Positions 10,211 through 59,397 of a DNA stretch of 64,000 bases are shown in pieces. The stretch is from Limnochordia bacterium. Lineage in GTDB: Bacteria > Bacillota > Limnochordia > DTU080. Where the stretch lies: positions 331,838-395,837 of the forward strand of contig JBMNJG010000011.1 in assembly GCA_050951545.1 (NCBI GenBank). Direction: 5' to 3'. Position 1 is the stretch's first letter. Every line of letters begins with the position of its first letter. The position numbers and the translations under genes are program-made. Under the pieces are notes generated by a model. That model was not told the origin of the DNA, ran no database searches, and saw nothing but the letters and a program-made list of their open reading frames with translations.

Positions 10211-11690
10211 TACACCGTTTGAGGTGATCGTGGGTCTCGAAGTTCACGCAGAACTGCTTACAGAGTCAAAGATATTCTGCGGTTGTTCGACGGCCTTTGG
10301 AGCCACGCCAAATACGCAGGTATGCCCTGTTTGCTTGGGCCTGCCAGGTACGTTACCAGTGCTCAACGAAAAGGCCGTTGAGTATGCCGCGAAAGCAGGT
10401 CTGGCTCTGGGGTGTGCCATTTCCTTGGTCAGCCGGTTCGATCGTAAGCAGTATTTCTATCCGGACCTTCCCAAGGCTTACCAGGTCTCGCAGTTTGATC
10501 GTCCCCTGTGTACAGACGGACGCGTGGAGTTCATGCTTGGCGGTGAGCTGCATGTAGTCAGGATCATGCGGGTGCATATGGAAGAAGAGGCTGGTAAGTC
10601 TGTCCACTCCAGCGATAGCTTGCGCGACTCGCAGTACTCGCTTATCGACTACAATCGTGGTGGACTAGCACTCATTGAGATCGTCACCCACCCCGACATG
10701 CATTCGGGTGACGAAGCCAGGCTCTTTATGGAGCGCCTGCACACTCTGCTGCGCTATATCGAGGTGTCAGATTGCAGGATGCAGGAAGGATCTCTGCGTT
10801 GCGATGCCAATGTCAACCTGAAGATCCTCTCCGGAGAGCAACCGATTCGTACCCCTATTGTGGAGATCAAGAATCTGAACTCCTTAAGAGCCTTGGAGCG
10901 AGCGATTGACTACGAGGCGCAGCGTCAGTACCATGAGTACCTTGATGGTTCGTGGCACCCCGGCATGCCATCTGGGAAGGTGACGGCGGGGTGGAATGAT
11001 ATCGAGAGTCGCACCTATGTGCAGCGTGAGAAAGAACACGCCGACGATTACCGTTACTTCCCTGACCCTGATATTCTACCGGTCGTAGTGCGCGAAGGGC
11101 AGGTAGAGGCGTGGCGCAGGCAGCTGCCCGAGCTGCCTGCAGCGCGCGAAGCTCGTTTCATAAGTGAGTATGACCTTCCCGCATATGATGCTGCAGTGCT
11201 TACAGCCTCTCGTCCCATCGCTGACTTCTTTGAGGCAGTGGTCGAGCAGTGTCATGACAGCAAGATGGTCAGTAACTGGATCATGGGCGAGTTGCTTCGG
11301 TTGCTCAAGGAGGCGGAAGACGACTCGGAGCATGCTCTTCTCTCGGCCCCCATCACCGCTGCAGGCTTGGCGCAGTTGCTGCTCATGGTCAAGGAGGGGC
11401 GCATTAACGCCAACAGCGGTAAAGAGGTCTTAGAGGTCATGTACCGCACTGGTCGTACGGCTGAGGACATTGTGCATGAACGTGGCCTAGAACAGATTAG
11501 CGACACCGATAAGCTAGATCGCTTAGTCGCAGAGGTCATCGACAAGCATCCTGAGGTGGTAACTGAGATCAAGGGCGGGAAGGTAACGGCTATCGGCTTT
11601 CTCGTGGGTCAGGTGATGAAGGCGACCCGTGGTCAGGCCAATCCAAAATTGGTCAATCAGTCGTTGCGGGACCGACTGGGCGTGGATTAG
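10203..11690 (+). CDS. gatB: Asp/Glu-tRNA amidotransferase subunit B
   Basis: GLEVHAEL, CPVCLGLPG, YFYPDLPKAYQ, HMEE, EGSLRCDAN, EIKNLNS, DYRYFPDPD, YqeY tail GQVMKATRGQANP. Confidence 0.97.
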   Translation: MDDTPFEVIVGLEVHAELLTESKIFCGCSTAFGATPNTQVCPVCLGLPGTLPVLNEKAVEYAAKAGLALGCAISLVSRFDRKQYFYPDLPKAYQVSQFDRPLCTDGRVEFMLGGELHVVRIMRVHMEEEAGKSVHSSDSLRDSQYSLIDYNRGGLALIEIVTHPDMHSGDEARLFMERLHTLLRYIEVSDCRMQEGSLRCDANVNLKILSGEQPIRTPIVEIKNLNSLRALERAIDYEAQRQYHEYLDGSWHPGMPSGKVTAGWNDIESRTYVQREKEHADDYRYFPDPDILPVVVREGQVEAWRRQLPELPAAREARFISEYDLPAYDAAVLTASRPIADFFEAVVEQCHDSKMVSNWIMGELLRLLKEAEDDSEHALLSAPITAAGLAQLLLMVKEGRINANSGKEVLEVMYRTGRTAEDIVHERGLEQISDTDKLDRLVAEVIDKHPEVVTEIKGGKVTAIGFLVGQVMKATRGQANPKLVNQSLRDRLGVD

Positions 11691-11700
11691 GAGCTGGGGA

Positions 11701-12558
11701 ATGTATGGCGAGCTACTGCGGATAGGGCCCATTGCCCTCTATAAGTATGGGACCGCGTTGGCCGCGGCTTTTCTGGTTGGCGCATGTTTGGCGATGTCGG
11801 AGGCTCGGCGCCGCAGGCTGGACACGACAGTCATCGTTGAGCTAGTGGTGCATCTGATGGTGTTGGGCCTGATTAGCGGTAGAGTGGGCTACATCCTCCC
11901 AGACTTGGGTTTTTACCTAACCCATCCGAGTGAGTTTTTCAGGGTGTCGGCCGGTGGGCTGAGCTATGTTACCGCGTTTGTGGTGGCTGTTGGCTACACT
12001 CGTTTCTACGCGAAGCGTCGTGGGCTGCGTTTCTGGGAGCTGCTAGATATATTGGCTCCGGGTCTAGCCGCCGGGCTGATCATTGGGTCGCTAGGAGCCG
12101 TGGAGTGGCAGCCGGCGAAAGGCGCCGTGCATCTAGGCCCTATCTACTGGTCGCCACCGGTACTGCTCTTTTTCACCATCGAATACGCTGGGTGTTGGTA
12201 CATCATGGCGTCGCGACGTCGTCTGCCCGAAGGGCGACGCTTCTGCCAGATTGTGGCCGTGGATGCTCTGGCTCGGATGCTGAGTAGTCTATGGGCCTGG
12301 ATCCTCTATGAAGAGTTCTTGCCGCACGCTTTGTCGACGCTTGTGGGCGCGGTGTTTCTTGTTGGGGCGTTGGTGTTCGGGCAGATGCTCACCTTTCACC
12401 ACAGCGGGTTACTGGAGAGTGCGGCGGCAGGTGAGATGACGCAGGCGCGGCGACCCCGCAAGCGGAGGCTGCCCGCGCGTCAGCGCGCAGTGCTTGCCGC
12501 CACTTGGCTAGGCTTTTATCTGCTTTTGGTCGGCTTGCTAGGTCGGACGCCGATGTAG
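11701..12558 (+). CDS. Lgt (prolipoprotein diacylglyceryl transferase)-like membrane protein, catalytic motifs degenerate
   Basis: N-terminal IGPIALYKYG, GRVGY, GGLS, LDILAP layout matches Lgt; H103 and R143/N146 signature absent; ATG 11701 after GGAG/GGGGA. Confidence 0.7.
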   Translation: MYGELLRIGPIALYKYGTALAAAFLVGACLAMSEARRRRLDTTVIVELVVHLMVLGLISGRVGYILPDLGFYLTHPSEFFRVSAGGLSYVTAFVVAVGYTRFYAKRRGLRFWELLDILAPGLAAGLIIGSLGAVEWQPAKGAVHLGPIYWSPPVLLFFTIEYAGCWYIMASRRRLPEGRRFCQIVAVDALARMLSSLWAWILYEEFLPHALSTLVGAVFLVGALVFGQMLTFHHSGLLESAAAGEMTQARRPRKRRLPARQRAVLAATWLGFYLLLVGLLGRTPM

Positions 12559-12625
12559 ATGCCAGCCCAGCTGCTTGGGGGCCACGCAAGAAACTGCGGC
12601 AATCTTCCTGCGGTCGCTTGGGTTG

Positions 12626-12748
12626 GTGGTAAGAACCTAGCGATGCGGTCTTCGCGAAGCCCTTTTTGCTCATTTTGGTCGCCCGAAGGGCTTTTTTCAC
12701 CGCCTAAGGGCACACTTTCCCGCCTTGATTTCGCTTCTGGGGCTACCG
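12626..12748. repeat. Partial, diverged copy of the 406-bp repeat unit
   Basis: agcgatgcggtcttcgcgaagccctttttgctcattttggtcgcccgaagggc...ttctggggctacc matches the unit segment starting at 13111; offset 472 bp. Confidence 0.85.
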
Positions 12749-12972
12749 TGGATACGCTTCACTTCGGCCCTACCAAAATGGCCTAGAAAGCTCACGGTAA
12801 GCTAGGCCGGTAAAACAGCGCGCTCACCAAAAACCTGCCATCGATCCAGGCCCCAAGCTGCGGGCCATGGATTCTGATGGACAACTCCTCCATGAGTTGC
12901 CCACAGACTCCACAGCCCCGACCAAAGACATCCATTGATTCATTTATTCGTTGTTTCTGGCTGTTATCTAGT

Positions 12973-14081
12973 TGGACACGCTCGCGAGACTGGCTCGGTA
13001 GTCGGACAGATGCACCCGGATTGGTACGTGAGTCGGGGCCAAGAATCCGACCGTGATGGCAAAATAGCCGCCCCATCAACCCCTGGGCGCAATGTACGTG
13101 GTAAAAGTGCAGCGATGCGGCCTTCGCGAAGCCCTTTTTGCTCATTTTGATCGCCCGAAGGGCTCTTTTCCCCGCCAAGAGCACGCTTTCCCGTCTCATG
13201 GCCCTTCTGGAGCTACCGGGCAGTACATAACCGAACAGTGTCGATCGCCTTTTTCCACTCAGTCGATGGGGTCAGCTCCCCAGTGCGCGATCACAGCGGG
13301 CTCGCTCGGGTCCCTCTGCGAACCGACCCTTCGGTGTTAACCCGGTGGGTGTGTTTCGAAAAGGGTGGACGGACACCATGCACACCCTCGCGAGACTCGC
13401 TCGGTAGTCGGACAGATGCACCCGCATTGGTACGTGAGTCGGGGTCAAGAATCCGACCGTGATGGCAAAAGAGCCGCCTCATTAACCCCCGGGGCCAATG
13501 TACGTGGTAAAAGTGCAGCGATGCGGCCTTCGCGAAGCCCTTTTGGTTGGTTTGGACGGCCTGAAGGGCTCTTTCCCCCCAAAAAGAGCGCGCTTTCCCG
13601 CCCTGGCGGCCCTTCTGGGGCTACCACGCAGCACATAACCGAACGGTAGTGACTGCCTTTTTCCACTCAGTCGATGGGGTCAGCTCCCCAGTGCGCGATC
13701 ACAGCGGCTCGCTCGGGTCCCTCTGCGAACCGACCCTTCAGTGTTAACCCGGTCGGTGCATTTGGAAGAGAATGGACGGATCAATGGACACGCTCGCGAG
13801 ACTGGCTCGGTAGTCGGACAGATGCACCCGGATTGGTACGTGAGTCGGGGCCAAGAATCCGACCGTGATGGCAAAATAGCCGCCCCATCAACCCCTGGGC
13901 GCAATGTACGTGGTAAAAGTGCAGCGATGCGGCCTTCGCGAAGCCCTTTTTGCTCATTTTGATCGCCCGAAGGGCTCTTTTCCCCGCAAAGAGCACGCTT
14001 TCCGGCCTTGATGCCTCTTCTGGAGCTGCCGGACGGTACATAACCCGACGGTGGTGGTACCTTTTTCCCACTCAGTCGATG
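12973..14081. repeat. Tandem array of ~2.7 copies of a 406-bp non-coding unit
   Basis: ctcgcgagac at 12981/13387/13793 and agcgatgcgg at 13111/13517/13923 give a period of 406; copy 1 (12973-13175) is identical to copy 3 (13785-13987) over 203 bp; copy 2 is diverged. Confidence 0.97.
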
Positions 14082-14212
14082 ATCCGAGGGGGAAATGCTG
14101 TCGACTCCCGGTGGCCACTGGGTCTTAGCTGGCAATGCGCGCGCAGTCAGCGAAGAACTATTGTCTGTGGAAGGATTCTGGAGCCGAACATAGAATTCAG
14201 CATTGAATCAAT

Positions 14213-14226
14213 CGAACACATGGTCG
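14213..14226 (+). promoter_or_regulatory. Putative LexA/DinR (Cheo) SOS box
   Basis: CGAACACATGGTCG has 1 mismatch to Firmicutes CGAAC-RNRY-GTTYG; lies just after TTGAAT (14203-14208) and before RBS GAGGTG. Confidence 0.55.
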
Positions 14227-14244
14227 TTATGTGAGGTGAGGCCC

Positions 14245-15306
14245 TTGTACTCTCTCTATGTAGATGAGGTGAACGTGCCGCTCTCACTGCTACTGACTCG
14301 CGAGCTAAAAGCCAGCGAGAAGATCGTTTGGATGGCCTTAACGATGGATGATCAGCTGGAGGAAAGTTTCCTTTTCTCGCCCAGCCGCCTGGGGCGGCGC
14401 ACGGGTATGTCCCGGCCTACCGTTCGCAGGGCGACAGCCAAGTTAACCACCGAGGGCTGGTTTGCTCCACCGGCTAGGCGGGGACCTAGCCAGACCGCGG
14501 CACAGAAGCCATCCCCGGATAGGGTCTCCGTACCTGTGGAGTTAGTCATGGCTACTGAAATCCATGCACAGGCCAAATTGGTTTATGCCCTACTGCTGTC
14601 CAAACCTACGGACCCACCTCGCAAAAGGCAGTTCACATACGCTGAGTTAGCCGGCCGGATGAGTCTGAGCCCCCAAACCATCAAACACGCGGCTCGTCAG
14701 TTGGCCAAGCATGGTTGGCTGGAGATGGAGCAGGCGCACAAGCGGGCACCGATTCGCTTCACTCTCCACAACCCGGTTGATAAGCGAAATGTAAAAGAAA
14801 TACTAGACGTGCAGGATGAGCTCCACCGCGCTACGCACCTCGGAGAGGCTCTCATGCAGGCTATCTTCTTGGCGCTTGTCGATTGCCTTGACTTCGACGA
14901 CGGAATGCGCCCAGGTTTCATGAGGAACCCAGCAACTGGCAAGCGTCTGGAGGTCGATCTCTTCTATTACTTGCACAATACGGCCATGGAGTTCAATGGG
15001 GCGCAACACTACCGCGTCACGGAGCGGAATTCGGCTGAGCAGGTCCATAAGCAGCAATGCCGTGACCAGACCAAACAGCAGATCTGCGCTAAGAAGAAGA
15101 TCAAGCTGATCGTGATTCAGGCTCACGAGCTGTCCTGCAAGATCATCAAGCGCAAGATTGACAGGCGGCTGCCATTCCGGCGCGGTCAGGACTTCAACCG
15201 GAAGCTCATCAACTATCTCGAGTGTAGATGCGGTGAATACCAGCAAAGAATAGATGAGCGCGGCTGGGGAACCGCCAGCCAATCTGAGAGAAAGCAAGAC
15301 GAGTAG
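14245..15306 (+). CDS. Tandem helix-turn-helix protein fused to Vsr/DUF559-like PD-(D/E)XK endonuclease domain
   Basis: Two internally homologous HTH modules (VPLSLL..LKASEKIVWMAL..RLGRRTGMSRPTVRRATAKLTTEGW; VPVELV..IHAQAKLVYALL..ELAGRMSLSPQTIKHAARQLAKHGW), then GE..RPGFMRNPATGKRLEVDLFY..AMEFNGAQHY..QQCRDQTKQQIC..IKLIVI; TTG 14245 after GAGGTGAGG. Confidence 0.8.
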   Translation: MYSLYVDEVNVPLSLLLTRELKASEKIVWMALTMDDQLEESFLFSPSRLGRRTGMSRPTVRRATAKLTTEGWFAPPARRGPSQTAAQKPSPDRVSVPVELVMATEIHAQAKLVYALLLSKPTDPPRKRQFTYAELAGRMSLSPQTIKHAARQLAKHGWLEMEQAHKRAPIRFTLHNPVDKRNVKEILDVQDELHRATHLGEALMQAIFLALVDCLDFDDGMRPGFMRNPATGKRLEVDLFYYLHNTAMEFNGAQHYRVTERNSAEQVHKQQCRDQTKQQICAKKKIKLIVIQAHELSCKIIKRKIDRRLPFRRGQDFNRKLINYLECRCGEYQQRIDERGWGTASQSERKQDE

Positions 15307-15620
15307 TCACCTTGGGTCACCTTGTTCGTTTCGTCAGGGCTCACATCGCAGGAGGAGATGAACCCTTTATCCGAGGCTGGAGGCCGCTGGCTACCCCATT
15401 GGCAGCGGATGCGTAGAAAGCGCCTGTAAGCAGGTTGTTGTTAGGCGCCACAAGCAATCTGGAATGCGTTGGAGCCAACTTAGGGCACAGCAGATGCCAA
15501 ACGTTGCAGCATACTCCCACGGTGAACAGTGGGACGATTTCTGGGAGAGGCCAGGGGCAGCATGATTAGTAACGGGTGTTCGCCGCGATTTCACGTGTGC
15601 ACCCAGCTGCTTGCTTGTGC

Positions 15621-15649
15621 TTGACAGCCGGGAGGTTGAACTGTATGAT
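15621..15649 (+). promoter_or_regulatory. Sigma-A promoter of valS leader
   Basis: TTGACA-17 nt-TATGAT. Confidence 0.85.
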
Positions 15650-15667
15650 GTGGAAAACTGGCTTATT

Positions 15668-15908
15668 GCACGGTGATGAAGGGGAGGAGTAACGGTTCAG
15701 CCCCGAAAAAAGAGAGGCTGCCCTTGGCTGGGAGGTAGCCCGGACGGACCGTGAATGTCGCCCTGGAGCAGCTTATCCCAAAATAGGCCGGGTGCGCCCG
15801 TTATCGCGTGTAGCAAGCGCCTTTGGTGCCCCCTTATGTGGTGTCAAAGGAACTAAGGTGGTACCGCGCGAGTCTACGCGTCCTTATGGAGGACGCGTTT
15901 TTGTTTTT
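15668..15908 (+). promoter_or_regulatory. T-box riboswitch (Val, GUC specifier) with terminator
   Basis: Stem I AGTA/AGAGA/GGCTGGGA motifs; specifier GTC at 15757-15759; T-box AAGGTGGTACCGCG at 15855-15868; terminator ACGCGTCC-ttatgga-GGACGCGT followed by a T run. Confidence 0.93.
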
Positions 15909-15946: not shown

Positions 15947-18622
15947 ATGGCGCAACGCGTCTTTTCATCTACTGCAGCTGTGGAGCTACCCAAGGTGTAT
16001 GATCCAAAGGCAGTGGAGAGCAAATGGTACAAGAGGTGGGAGGAGCGGGGCTACTTCCATGCCCAGGCTCGTCCCGGACGACCCAAGTTCAGCATGGTCA
16101 TTCCGCCACCCAATGTGACGGGTTCATTGCACATGGGACATGCACTCAACAACACGTTGCAGGATGTCTTACTGCGTTGGCACCGGATGATGGGCCATGA
16201 CGCCCTTTGGGTTCCGGGCACGGATCACGCTGGAATTGCCACACAGATCAAAGTGGAGGAGCACCTGCGCAAAGAAGAGGGTCTCACCCGTCACGATGTG
16301 GGGCGTGAGCGCTTCCTGGAGCGCGTCTGGGCCTGGAAAGAGCGATATCACGCAAACATTGTGGGCCAGCTGAAGACACTGGGTTGTGCGGTGGACTGGC
16401 AGCGAGAGCGCTTTACAATGGATGAGGGATGCTCCAAGGCGGTACGTGAGGTCTTCGTTCGGCTCTATGAGAGGGGCCTCATCTACCAGGGTAGCTACAT
16501 CGTGAACTGGTGTCCGCACTGCCATACAACACTCTCTGACGTGGAAGTGGAGCATGAGGAAGTAGAGGGTCACCTGTGGTACATTCGCTATCCTATGGCT
16601 TCAGGTGAGGGGTATGCGATGGTTGCCACAACTCGTCCTGAGACCATGCTCGGCGATACGGCCATAGCCGTGCATCCTGATGATGAACGCTATGCCGCTC
16701 AGGTGGGGCAGAGCGTTGTCTTGCCCCTGATGAATCGCGAGATACCGCTCATCGCAGATAGTTTCGTAGATCCGGCGTTCGGTACCGGCATGGTCAAGGT
16801 GACGCCAGCCCATGATCCGAATGACTGCGAGATGGGCGAACGCCACGGACTGGCCCGCATTCAGGTGATTGACGAAGATGGTTGTATGAACTCTGAAGCC
16901 GGGGCCTATGCTGGTCTGGAGCGCTATGCGTGTCGGGATAGCGTTGTTGCTGACCTGGAGAAGCAAGGCTTTCTGGTCAAGGTGGAGGATCATCTGCACG
17001 CAGTGGGTCACTGCTATCGCTGTGGCACGGTGGTAGAACCCCTGATCTCTAAGCAGTGGTTTGTCCGTATGAAGCCCTTGGCAGGTCCTGCTATCGAGGC
17101 GGTGCAGCGGGGCGACATCCGTTTTATCCCTGAGCGCTTTGCGAAGCAGTACCTGCACTGGATGGAGAACACCCGAGACTGGTGTATCTCGCGCCAGTTG
17201 TGGTGGGGTCATCGCATTCCAGTTTGGACCTGTCAGGCTTGTGGAGAGCAGTTTGCTTCGAAACACGACCCGGAGAAGTGCCCCGTATGTGCCGAAGCGC
17301 GACTAGAACAAGACCCGGATGTGCTCGATACCTGGTTTAGCTCTGCTCTCTGGCCTTTCTCAACATTGGGGTGGCCGGACCAGACGGAAGACCTTGCCGA
17401 TTTTTATCCTACTTCGGTCTTGGTTACGGCGTATGACATCATCACTTTCTGGGTGGCTCGCATGATCTTTTCGGGTCTGGAGCACACAGGGCAAAAGCCC
17501 TTCCACGAGGTGCTGGTGCATGGGCTTGTGCGTGACGCATTGGGCCGAAAAATGAGTAAGTCGCTGGGCAATGGCGTAGATCCGCTCGAGGTGATCGACG
17601 AGAACGGCGCGGACGCGTTGCGCTTCACACTGCTTACGGGTGTGGCTCCGGGTAACGACACGCGCTATCATCCAGAGCGTACCGAAGCCAATCGGAACTA
17701 TGCCAACAAGATCTGGAATGCCTCTCGCTTTGCTCTGATGAATATGCAGGATTTTCAACCAACAGAGCAAGCCTTGACCGAGCTATCGCTCGAGCTTCCT
17801 GATCGCTGGATTCTGGCTCGCCTGAATTCGACAGTACGCGAAGTGAGCCGCCATCTGTCACGCTACGATTTCGGTGAGGGTGCACGGGCTCTGTACGACT
17901 TCATGTGGAGCGAAGTATGCGACTGGTATATCGAAGCTGTGAAACCGAGGCTGTACGGGCAGTACGGTGCGGAGAGTCGCCGGACAGCTCAGAGCGTGCT
18001 TTGGCAGGTGCTTTTGCGCACTTTGGAGCTACTACACCCCTTCATGCCGTTTATCACGGAAGAGATATGGCAACACCTTCCTCATGAAGGCGAATCGATC
18101 ATGCTAGCATCGTGGCCTGTCGAGGTTCCAGAGTGGGAAGATGGCGACGCGGTGGAGCAGATGGGGGTGGTGATGGACGTAGTGCGAGCCATCCGCAACA
18201 TGCGCTCTGAGAAGACGGTGTCTCCCGAGAAGGCCATTCAGGCCATTCTCCATGCCGATGCGGGGAAGACCGCTATCTTGTCCGAAAACCGGGAGACAGT
18301 AATGCATTTGGCGCATCTGTCGGAGTTGGCGCTTGAGGGAGTGGATCATGCTAAGCCGGACCAAGCATTGGCGGCGGTGGCCGCGGGAGTTGAGGTATTC
18401 TTACCTCTAGCGGGCTTGGTTGACATTGACGAGGAGTTAGCTCGGCTACAGAAGGAGCTAGCAGAGGTTGATGAGCATCTGGCGCGTACTCGCGCTCGTC
18501 TCAGCAATCCGGGCTTTGTGAACAAGGCCCCTGCGCAGGTGGTGGAGGGTGCACGCCGCCAGCTAAGCGACTTGGAGGAGCGAAGAGCGAAACTGGCTGC
18601 AACGCTTGCCGATCTGCAGTGA
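15947..18622 (+). CDS. valS: Valyl-tRNA synthetase
   Basis: [48 protein letters not shown]-terminal coiled coil. Confidence 0.98.
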
Positions 18623-45862: not shown

Positions 45863-47386
<1,524 letters not shown>

Positions 47387-47652
47387 GCCAAGGCGGTCAG
47401 TCTTGGCTACTCCTAGGTCGGCCCTTGCTGATGTACGCTGTTTAGTTGCCAGGGACTGGAGCAGTCTTTGCACCTTGACAACTGCACAGAGGAGAAAAGG
47501 TGACGATACACACACCTGCCGCGACTGACATCGACGCGGTGAGGTGTGTATGGAGATCGTTTGATGGTCCCTCGACCATCATGGCGACTCCTAGTTGCCT
47601 GAGGAGACTTACAAACCTAGCGTGGCTCAAAAGAGCACACGCGGGCTTAATC

Positions 47653-50636
<2,984 letters not shown>

Positions 50637-50715
50637 TAAAAGTAGTAAGCTCTCAGGCAGCAATCGTCATCTTATCTTCTGTGCAGTTGTGAGGGTGCAC
50701 AGCACCTGGAGACTT

Positions 50716-50833
50716 TGTCGGTGGCAATGGCGGAGGGGACCCACCCGTTCCCATCCCGAACACGGCAGTTAAGCCCTCCAGCGGTGATGGTACTGCAGGG
50801 GTAACCCTGTGGGAGAGTAGCTCGCTGCCGGCA
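50716..50833 (+). rRNA. rrf: 5S rRNA
   Basis: CACCCGTTCCCATCCCGAACACGG..GTTAAG..GATGGTACT..GGGAGAGTAG. Confidence 0.97.

Positions 50834-59321: not shown

Positions 59322-59397
<76 letters not shown>

Follow-up and report, generated by a model that had tools for sequence, protein, structure and literature searches.

A multi-copy, single-gene transposable element of a Limnochordia bacterium, with internal 406-bp tandem repeats and a gene for a winged-helix protein with a predicted Vsr-type nuclease domain

Between lgt and valS of a Limnochordia bacterium (GenBank assembly GCA_050951545.1, contig JBMNJG010000011.1, positions 331,838 to 395,837), a tandem array of 406-bp non-coding units stands just ahead of a single gene, whose predicted product joins two helix-turn-helix (HTH) modules to a nuclease. 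What kind of locus is this, and what does the repeat have to do with the protein? A preliminary description of this 64-kb stretch (the window) offered structured RNAs acting on the nuclease, DNA sites or an origin for a replication-initiator-like protein, or a selfish element. We find that positions 12578-15604 of the window (3,027 bp) are a transposable element that has a single gene and occurs in many copies, of which this is one. Coordinates are those of the window unless a contig label is given; C1 to C16 denote the 16 contigs of the window's own genome (3.64 Mb).

The 406-bp unit gave 82 BLAST matches in this genome, falling into 20 arrays of 1.4 to 6 units and five solitary fragments, and a chance origin of the repeat is therefore excluded. 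The protein gave 34 matches. Fifteen copies of the gene are full length, with nucleotide identities of 97.6-100%, and 13 of them keep an intact frame of 353 codons; together with the 20 arrays they are spread over 10 contigs. Each of the 15 has an array directly upstream; array and gene, whose co-occurrence the preliminary description had proposed to check, are tightly linked in this genome. Two more arrays precede gene remnants (C12 and C14) and three stand without an adjacent gene (C10:60331, C14:7971, and C2:185229); the gene-less arrays look like deletion remnants or truncated copies. The phase of the array is nearly constant: it begins at about unit position 126 and ends at position 298 in nearly all copies.

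The ends of the element are sharply defined. Homology among the copies begins abruptly at 12578, all 15 upstream flanks being different, and stops at 15604. The termini form inverted repeats, with 16 of 23 positions identical in register, a score reached by 5 of 200,000 random pairs of genomic 23-mers. Left and right ends could be paired for seven copies; an identical 9-bp duplication flanks five of these (for the C3 copy, which is counted among the five, this requires moving its variant right terminus outward by 4 nt), a duplication matching at 8 of 9 positions flanks one, and none flanks the copy on C2. A blind search for end-like 12-mers (up to two mismatches), arranged as inverted pairs 0.3-9 kb apart and bordered by a 9-bp repeat in which one mismatch was allowed, returned six elements: five known copies of 1,881-4,070 bp and a 1,251-bp derivative holding a gene fragment. 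The chance expectation for such pairs is about 0.03, a rough estimate made by hand rather than by the search tool, and no other gene was found inside any of the six.

Two genomes of the same genus (G001 and G002) preserve the empty site, in the order gatB, lgt, about 52 bp, T-box, valS, which bears out a second check proposed in the preliminary description. Contigs from other sequencing runs diverge from the window at 12577 (one RNA-library contig) and exactly at 15604 (two RNA-library contigs), and one DNA run, which may be the source sample, has contigs spanning both junctions. The element thus shows the marks of a class II element, namely many copies at unrelated sites, a duplication of fixed length, terminal inverted repeats, and an empty site; a recognised transposase class is not encoded. 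These ends and duplications are those of the 406-bp subfamily. The selfish element of the preliminary description, with a nuclease that expands the copy number of the unit, came closest, in that the locus is mobile and multi-copy; what moves, however, is a whole transposable element with its own ends, duplications, and empty site, and not a locus-bound system. The window copy is made up as follows.

12569-12577, unstranded: left target-site duplication AGCTGCTTG; the identical 9-mer lies at 15605-15613.
12578-12625, plus strand: left terminus and 48-bp left-end segment, beginning GGGGCCACGCAA; the homology of 15 left ends begins here.
12626-12747, plus strand: partial, diverged first unit (unit positions 126-247); arrays of other copies likewise begin at about 126, right after the left-end segment.
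12748-12981, plus strand: foreign 234-bp piece replacing the remainder of the first unit; it meets the next unit at a short shared sequence.
12973-14081, plus strand: tandem array, with units at 12973-13378 and 13379-13784 and a partial unit (positions 1-298) at 13785-14081.
14082-14244, plus strand: array-to-gene spacer, which other copies conserve along with the gene; a Shine-Dalgarno-like GAGGTGAGG lies at 14233-14241.
14245-15306, plus strand: gene of 353 aa, encoding two winged helices followed by a Vsr/EDxHD-type PD-(D/E)XK nuclease domain (by predicted fold).
15307-15604, plus strand: right non-coding segment and right terminus, ending CACGTGTGCACCC.
15605-15613, unstranded: right target-site duplication AGCTGCTTG.

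The anatomy given in the preliminary description stood up well. Its 2.7 or so tandem units correspond to the single array reported by Tandem Repeats Finder (period 406, 2.7 copies, 86% matches), and its partial fourth unit was recovered by a repeat search at 66-75% identity; the 234-bp piece between the two is unrelated to the unit. The gene, placed some 160 bp past the array, begins 163 bp downstream of it at a likely TTG start behind the Shine-Dalgarno-like motif, in agreement with public gene calls; the frame from stop to stop is longer (14203-15306, 367 aa). The flanking genes were also named correctly: an LGT domain at 11629-12558 (Pfam) lies to the left, and a T-box at 15667-15888 (Rfam) followed by valS at 15947-18622 (Pfam) lies to the right. 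Pfam also confirms GatB as a neighbor. The element inserted past the stop codon of lgt and ahead of the valS promoter. The two HTH modules and the Vsr/DUF559-like nuclease find counterparts in Pfam, PHROG, and predicted-structure matches. In most of the other copies the position equivalent to 15347 is followed by some 330 bp of additional sequence, which the window copy does not have.

Several derivatives and mosaic pieces accompany the full-length copies. Internally deleted forms resembling miniature inverted-repeat transposable elements, which keep their ends and have lost most or all of the gene, lie at C12:188946-190826, C4:35079-36329, C14:234-1053, and C5:366237-366536; those on C12 and C4 retain 9-bp duplications. 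The 234-bp piece is 97-98% identical to C14:2151-2384, C13:20071-20303, and C7:70981-71212, where the sequence continues further to the right; it is part of a longer repeat family, whose C13 copy lies downstream of a gene of a related subfamily (the 55% subfamily, below) and whose C7 copy lies inside another array. Just past the right target duplication, ahead of the T-box leader, is a strong sigma-70-like valS promoter (TTGACA, 17 nt, TATGAT; 15621-15649), conserved in both same-genus genomes. Apart from it, a promoter and terminator scan of 12400-15800 found no excess over shuffled sequence, with three terminator-like sites against 3.6 expected.

We turn to the protein. Pfam places HTH families at two positions, residues 59-87 and 119-176 of the 367-aa frame. 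The AlphaFold (AF2) model reached a mean confidence (pLDDT) of 92.5 with an alignment of 83 sequences, consisting of rows picked from the 150 best listed matches plus the paralogues of this genome, and 61 with five sequences. In this model residues 3-177 form two winged helices, which superpose on the iteron-bound Pi initiator of plasmid R6K (PDB 2nra; Z 8.5, 166 residues, root-mean-square deviation [rmsd] 4.1), although winged-helix matches at about this Z are generic. Residues 196-334 match the catalytic domain of the homing endonuclease I-Bth0305I (3r3p; Z 8.0, 93 of 98 residues, rmsd 2.9), Vsr (1cw0; Z 8.0, 106 residues), and the DUF559-like protein NGO0050 (3hrl; Z 7.6), each over most of the domain and all with Z values near the noise ceiling of the tool. 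The same three structures are grouped with VSR, DUF559, and DUF2726 in a survey of PD-(D/E)XK nucleases (PMC3424549). Sequence matches agree with the fold: DUF2726 was matched in 10 of the 83 members, and PHROG families of homing or intron-encoded endonucleases matched residues 232-313 with E values of 1e-11 to 4e-6. At least 90% of the 83 sequences have D238, Y241, E249, G252, Q254, H255, Q270, R273, and D274, and all have K277. By its predicted fold, the C-terminal domain belongs to the Vsr/DUF559/DUF2726 (EDxHD) clade of PD-(D/E)XK nucleases.

Foldseek returned nothing at E below 1e-3, and a sequence search of the PDB returned winged-helix regulators only. Pfam, NCBIfam, PHROGs, and PADLOC yielded only HTH, DUF2726, and homing-endonuclease matches to the protein, and no recognised transposase class. 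Replication initiators and DnaD were matched weakly by the N-terminal half, in both PHROG and Pfam. Homodimer predictions scored 0.15, 0.53, and 0.00, against a mark of 0.42.

Comparisons among the copies show this gene to be the only conserved open reading frame (ORF) of the element, and it is under purifying selection. The ratio of nonsynonymous to synonymous substitution rates (dN/dS) was 0.13 over 15 pairs from six intact copies of equal length, a count that leaves out those with an alignment stopping one base early. Antisense frames inside the gene lack both a Pfam match and conservation across the subfamilies. Three metatranscriptome libraries gave contigs that cover the gene (14364-15318) and only small parts of the array; the contigs may include DNA, and repeats assemble poorly. 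A joint from 14653 to 15567 in two RNA libraries was considered as splicing and rejected, an internally deleted copy also being present at C14:234-359.

The element is not alone in its genome. Three further subfamilies encode proteins with 55%, 47%, and 49% identity to the one described here, in four, two, and seven copies, respectively. The 55% subfamily has arrays of 255- to 262-bp units downstream of the gene; the 47% subfamily has repeated segments upstream, which are poorly resolved; and the 49% subfamily has arrays of 2 to 4.6 copies of a 94-bp unit about 300 bp downstream, the core of which is a motif able to form a hairpin, with one further occurrence upstream of the gene. The arrays of different subfamilies are unrelated in sequence.

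Outside this genome the protein family is broad. A word-based protein search found four clusters only, none from beyond this organism and its near relatives. When 1.84 billion representatives were searched with a profile, 233 proteins matched at E values of 1e-30 or below and 1,165 at 1e-10 or below, with full-length alignment in most of the best 150 matches. Clustered at 50% identity, the family numbers at least 233 clusters in public genomes and metagenomes, mostly from Limnochordia, Symbiobacteriaceae, and other Bacillota, whose members go under the names "DNA-binding MarR family transcriptional regulator" or "hypothetical protein." Thirteen of 40 related genomes carry it, commonly at high copy number (three of them gave 20, 13, and 9 matches); it was not found in the two same-genus genomes, both of which are fragmented (280-380 contigs). 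A scan of species-representative genomes gave 69 loci, mostly in Limnochordia, Symbiobacteriaceae, Thermaerobacter, and other metagenome-assembled genomes of Bacillota; among these 69, which come from other genomes, no pair within one genome was 85% or more identical. A metagenome scan gave one 1,730-bp contig only. In one genome of the same taxonomic family (G004), the first winged helix lies about 0.3-0.9 kb from the rest of the protein in long open frames of 532-661 aa (for example, at C5:6038-7945 and C51:75616-76947 of that genome), and two homologues stand side by side at C120:40901-43182.

Repeats recur in this wider family, judging from the 66 loci used for the comparison (three archaeal partial hits were dropped), yet they are not universal. 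Tandem repeats with a period of at least 40 lie within 1.2 kb of the gene at 8 of the 66 loci. Ten arrays near the gene correspond to 7.0 per 100 kb, versus 8 arrays further away, or 2.2 per 100 kb (binomial p 0.012), in a count that used approximate gene ends and wrongly placed a few arrays inside the gene. The 406-bp unit was not found in the 20 relatives searched, and across these and the window's own genome no unit was found away from copies of the element or their remnants. The preliminary description had made its case depend on protein and repeat occurring together; the protein often occurs without an array, but the 406-bp unit has not been met apart from the element.

Which enzyme moves the element? 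We lean slightly towards the winged-helix nuclease as the element's own mobility enzyme, because its gene is the only conserved ORF, is under purifying selection, and is the sole gene linked to these ends: no other element type with the same termini was found in the genome, by BLAST or by pattern. The multi-copy state of the three paralogous subfamilies, each with its own repeats next to the gene, and that of the family in 13 of the 40 related genomes were also counted for autonomy. In such a scheme the winged helices would bind the element ends and the repeats, a multimer of the nuclease would cut the element free and cut the target with a 9-nt stagger, and gap filling, perhaps with host end joining, would yield the 9-bp duplication. 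The genome encodes Ku. Its sole Ku gene (C3:133863-134384) and the left end of the element copy at C3:133716 are some 150 bp apart, which is probably a coincidence. The element may, then, move by a mechanism that has yet to be described.

The role of the array is a separate matter. Units are 403-409 bp long with insertions and deletions, a length that is not a multiple of three, and ORFs on the minus strand of the array have no Pfam match; the array is non-coding. It also turns over fast. Units differ from one another by 5-20%, with changes scattered and no spacer-like variable block. About one-third of 71 unit cores have their best match within the same array, at up to 99.4% identity, and the others match units elsewhere at 85-97%; the matches inside arrays imply that the arrays are reshaped by local duplication. 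An origin of the units as copies of the termini was considered and rejected, local alignments of the left end and of the right end with the unit being not significant. The 6-mers CCGACC (7-22 times) and CATCGC (3.5-18 times) exceed their genome background in the 406-bp, 94-bp, and ~260-bp arrays, although repeated units inflate such counts; the phase of the 406-bp arrays begins at a CAGCGATGCGG-like motif. These words may represent a shared protein-binding motif, which we regard only as a lead.

The array is probably a feature that acts, or arises, at the DNA level, as a binding platform or as a by-product of duplication. On the first of these, a cis-acting DNA feature, we regard the balance as even. 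In that case the non-coding stretch that separates the left end from the gene would have been multiplied in tandem, and the resulting array would load the protein in many copies, or titrate it, while growing and shrinking via local duplication and unequal exchange. The main alternative, somewhat doubtful in our view but a serious one, concerns the array alone and not the mobility of the element: a neutral, satellite-like expansion without function, from slippage, unequal exchange, or the repair of breaks made by the nuclease. Copy numbers that range from 1.4 to 6, with some adjacent units 98-99% identical and others differing by 10-20%, are what such turnover might leave, and the array diverges faster than the gene (80-90% versus 97.6-100% identity); most homologues elsewhere, moreover, are without an array. 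Against neutrality, arrays or repeats are kept in all four subfamilies of the genome, the phase from about 126 to 298 is fixed in nearly all copies, and at the 66 loci of other genomes the density of arrays is about threefold higher within 1.2 kb of homologues than beyond.

A second alternative concerns the enzyme. The element could be non-autonomous and moved by a canonical transposase encoded elsewhere, in which case the nuclease would be cargo, a homing or retention nuclease, or a regulator; its nuclease domain is, after all, of the homing-endonuclease type. A retention role, through cutting of empty donor sites, has reportedly been proposed for TnpB in IS200/IS605. IS256-type transposase genes are present as fragments only, but the genome has intact DDE_Tnp_1 genes, among them that of an IS4-like insertion sequence (IS) of 1.7 kb with a 486-aa ORF, present in three copies at 99.8% identity (C11:1516-3231, C7 at ~658.3-660.0 kb, and C16 at ~36.4-38.1 kb). 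This IS makes 9-bp target duplications, and two of its copies directly adjoin copies of the repeat-bearing element. Its ends, which start CAGGACTTCCGCAAG, match each other at 17 of 23 positions but match the ends of the repeat-bearing element at only 5-8 of 23 in register. Nor does any element with the latter ends carry another gene. Finally, the retention of the nuclease gene in four diverged subfamilies, with 13 of 15 copies intact and a dN/dS of 0.13, is the pattern expected of a gene needed for spread. Mobilization in trans therefore seems unlikely to us, though well above the two readings that follow.

That the array encodes structured RNAs guiding, binding, or neutralizing the nuclease, the first proposal of the preliminary description, now looks very improbable. 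The strict linkage of array and gene in this genome and the recurrence of arrays near paralogues would suit it. However, Rfam at gathering thresholds gave no match within the element; folding of a single unit compared with shuffles gave z scores of +0.87 and +0.22, with no signal on either strand; and a consensus fold of 30 of the 35 full units, compared with column shuffles, gave +0.37 and -1.29, again without signal. The scattered variation without a spacer-like block, the unrelated arrays of subfamilies whose proteins are 47-55% identical, and a nuclease fold that is that of DNA enzymes all speak against it as well, and we see no support for a structured RNA. Least probable of all is an integrated replicon with the dual winged-helix protein as replication initiator and the repeats as iterons or origin, since the superposition on iteron-bound Pi and the weak initiator and DnaD matches that favor it are set against 406-bp rather than ~20-bp units, a chromosomal element in about 20 copies with target duplications and an empty site in relatives, the generic nature of such winged-helix matches, and the lack of any homologue in a tblastn search of 72,556 plasmid records. 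Of the second proposal of the preliminary description, there remains the suggestion that the repeats may be binding sites, in keeping with the superposition on Pi; the replication origin does not fit a multi-copy chromosomal element.

Taken together, the mobility and array proposals would describe a new class of prokaryotic transposase, in which a Vsr/EDxHD nuclease with two winged helices alone mobilizes an element whose long internal repeats serve as a loading or control platform; we place this combined reading just short of an even balance. The following points weigh against the mobility and array proposals. We know of no transposition chemistry for a Vsr-type hydrolytic nuclease, and any cutting or joining of DNA by this protein is putative. 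The co-resident IS4-like IS also makes 9-bp duplications, so the sequence is compatible with action in trans. Gapped local alignment of the two ends was no better than that of shuffles, and the inverted repeats are therefore imperfect. For the three other subfamilies, neither a k-mer search nor inspection of the ends turned up convincing target duplications or crisp boundaries. None were found for the diverged copies in other genomes either, those in G009 and G004 being too dissimilar (65-83% identical or less) for ends to be defined. An array was undetected near most homologues elsewhere and is thus not essential to the family. Array copy numbers, lastly, are those of the assembly alone, although collapse or expansion during assembly is unlikely to have created them because the units differ enough from one another.

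Comparison with known systems brings out what is unusual here. IS4/IS10/IS50-type DDE elements have inverted ends and 9-bp target duplications, and our element resembles them in being multi-copy, with a single gene, imperfect inverted termini, a 9-bp duplication, and intergenic insertion with an empty site in relatives. It differs in its one to six tandem 406-bp units and in that no DDE, HUH, serine, tyrosine, or DEDD domain was detected. With the EDxHD/Vsr-like homing endonuclease I-Bth0305I the protein shares the predicted nuclease fold and a separate DNA-binding region N-terminal of the nuclease, and acidic and histidine residues, possibly catalytic ones, are conserved among its homologues; unlike that enzyme, it is not encoded in an intron or intein, and it is associated with 9-bp duplications at unrelated insertion sites. 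Cleavage by I-Bth0305I produces 5' overhangs of two bases at a single cognate site (PMC3239194). We rejected a homing endonuclease gene as an account of the locus on the grounds that copies lie at unrelated sites with differing 9-bp duplications.

Like Pi of R6K, the protein has two tandem winged helices and adjoins direct DNA repeats, whereas the 406-bp unit, the attached nuclease, the chromosomal transposable element, and the absence of plasmid homologues among the records searched set it apart. Iterons of Rep replicons are about 17-22 bp long and lie at the origin of an extrachromosomal replicon; 406-bp units in chromosomal insertions, with no plasmid match, do not fit that plan. TnsA of Tn7 likewise joins a PD-(D/E)XK nuclease to a winged-helix domain, and it works only with the DDE protein TnsB. 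The order of its domains is opposite to that found here, and a Tn7-like system was rejected, the element having a single conserved ORF and no second gene for a TnsB-like partner. The survey cited above (PMC3424549) lists TnsA as a transposase clade of the PD-(D/E)XK nucleases. Repeat RNAs of CRISPR or type III toxin-antitoxin systems were likewise rejected on the length of the unit, the absence of a folding or covariation signal, and the absence of an Rfam match.

A likeness to the array is also found outside prokaryotes. Eukaryotic MULE, hAT, and CACTA transposons contain subterminal or internal tandem repeats, and they share with our element tandem repeats of variable copy number near one end; here, by contrast, the element is prokaryotic, its unit greatly exceeds the usual transposase-binding repeats in length, and it encodes a different enzyme. 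Literature searches at the level of abstracts found no bacterial element of a comparable kind.

Some features unrelated to the element were recorded in passing. The window also contains a complete rRNA operon (16S, 23S, and 5S; 45863-50833) and a tRNA-Ala(GGC) gene (59322-59397). A whole-genome scan for tandem repeats found CRISPR-like arrays of two repeat types, at about 2.1-3.0 kb on C5, 153.9-158.4 kb on C6, 15.1-17.0 kb on C9, and 153.0-157.7 kb on C16.

To our knowledge, the enzymes of all well-described bacterial insertion sequences are of the DDE, HUH, serine, tyrosine, or DEDD type. The element described here has classical transposon hallmarks, yet its sole conserved gene encodes what is, by predicted fold, a hydrolytic nuclease of the homing-endonuclease type. 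If this nuclease does not move the element, the locus would be a clean case of a selected passenger nuclease on a non-autonomous transposon. If it does, a further chemistry, perhaps one of cutting, filling, and joining with host repair, would be added to those known for mobility; homing endonucleases would be linked to transposons, and a family now annotated as MarR-type regulators would be explained. Arrays of 94-, ~260-, and 406-bp units inside bacterial transposons are unusual in either case, and they offer a tractable model for the origin and turnover of tandem repeats.

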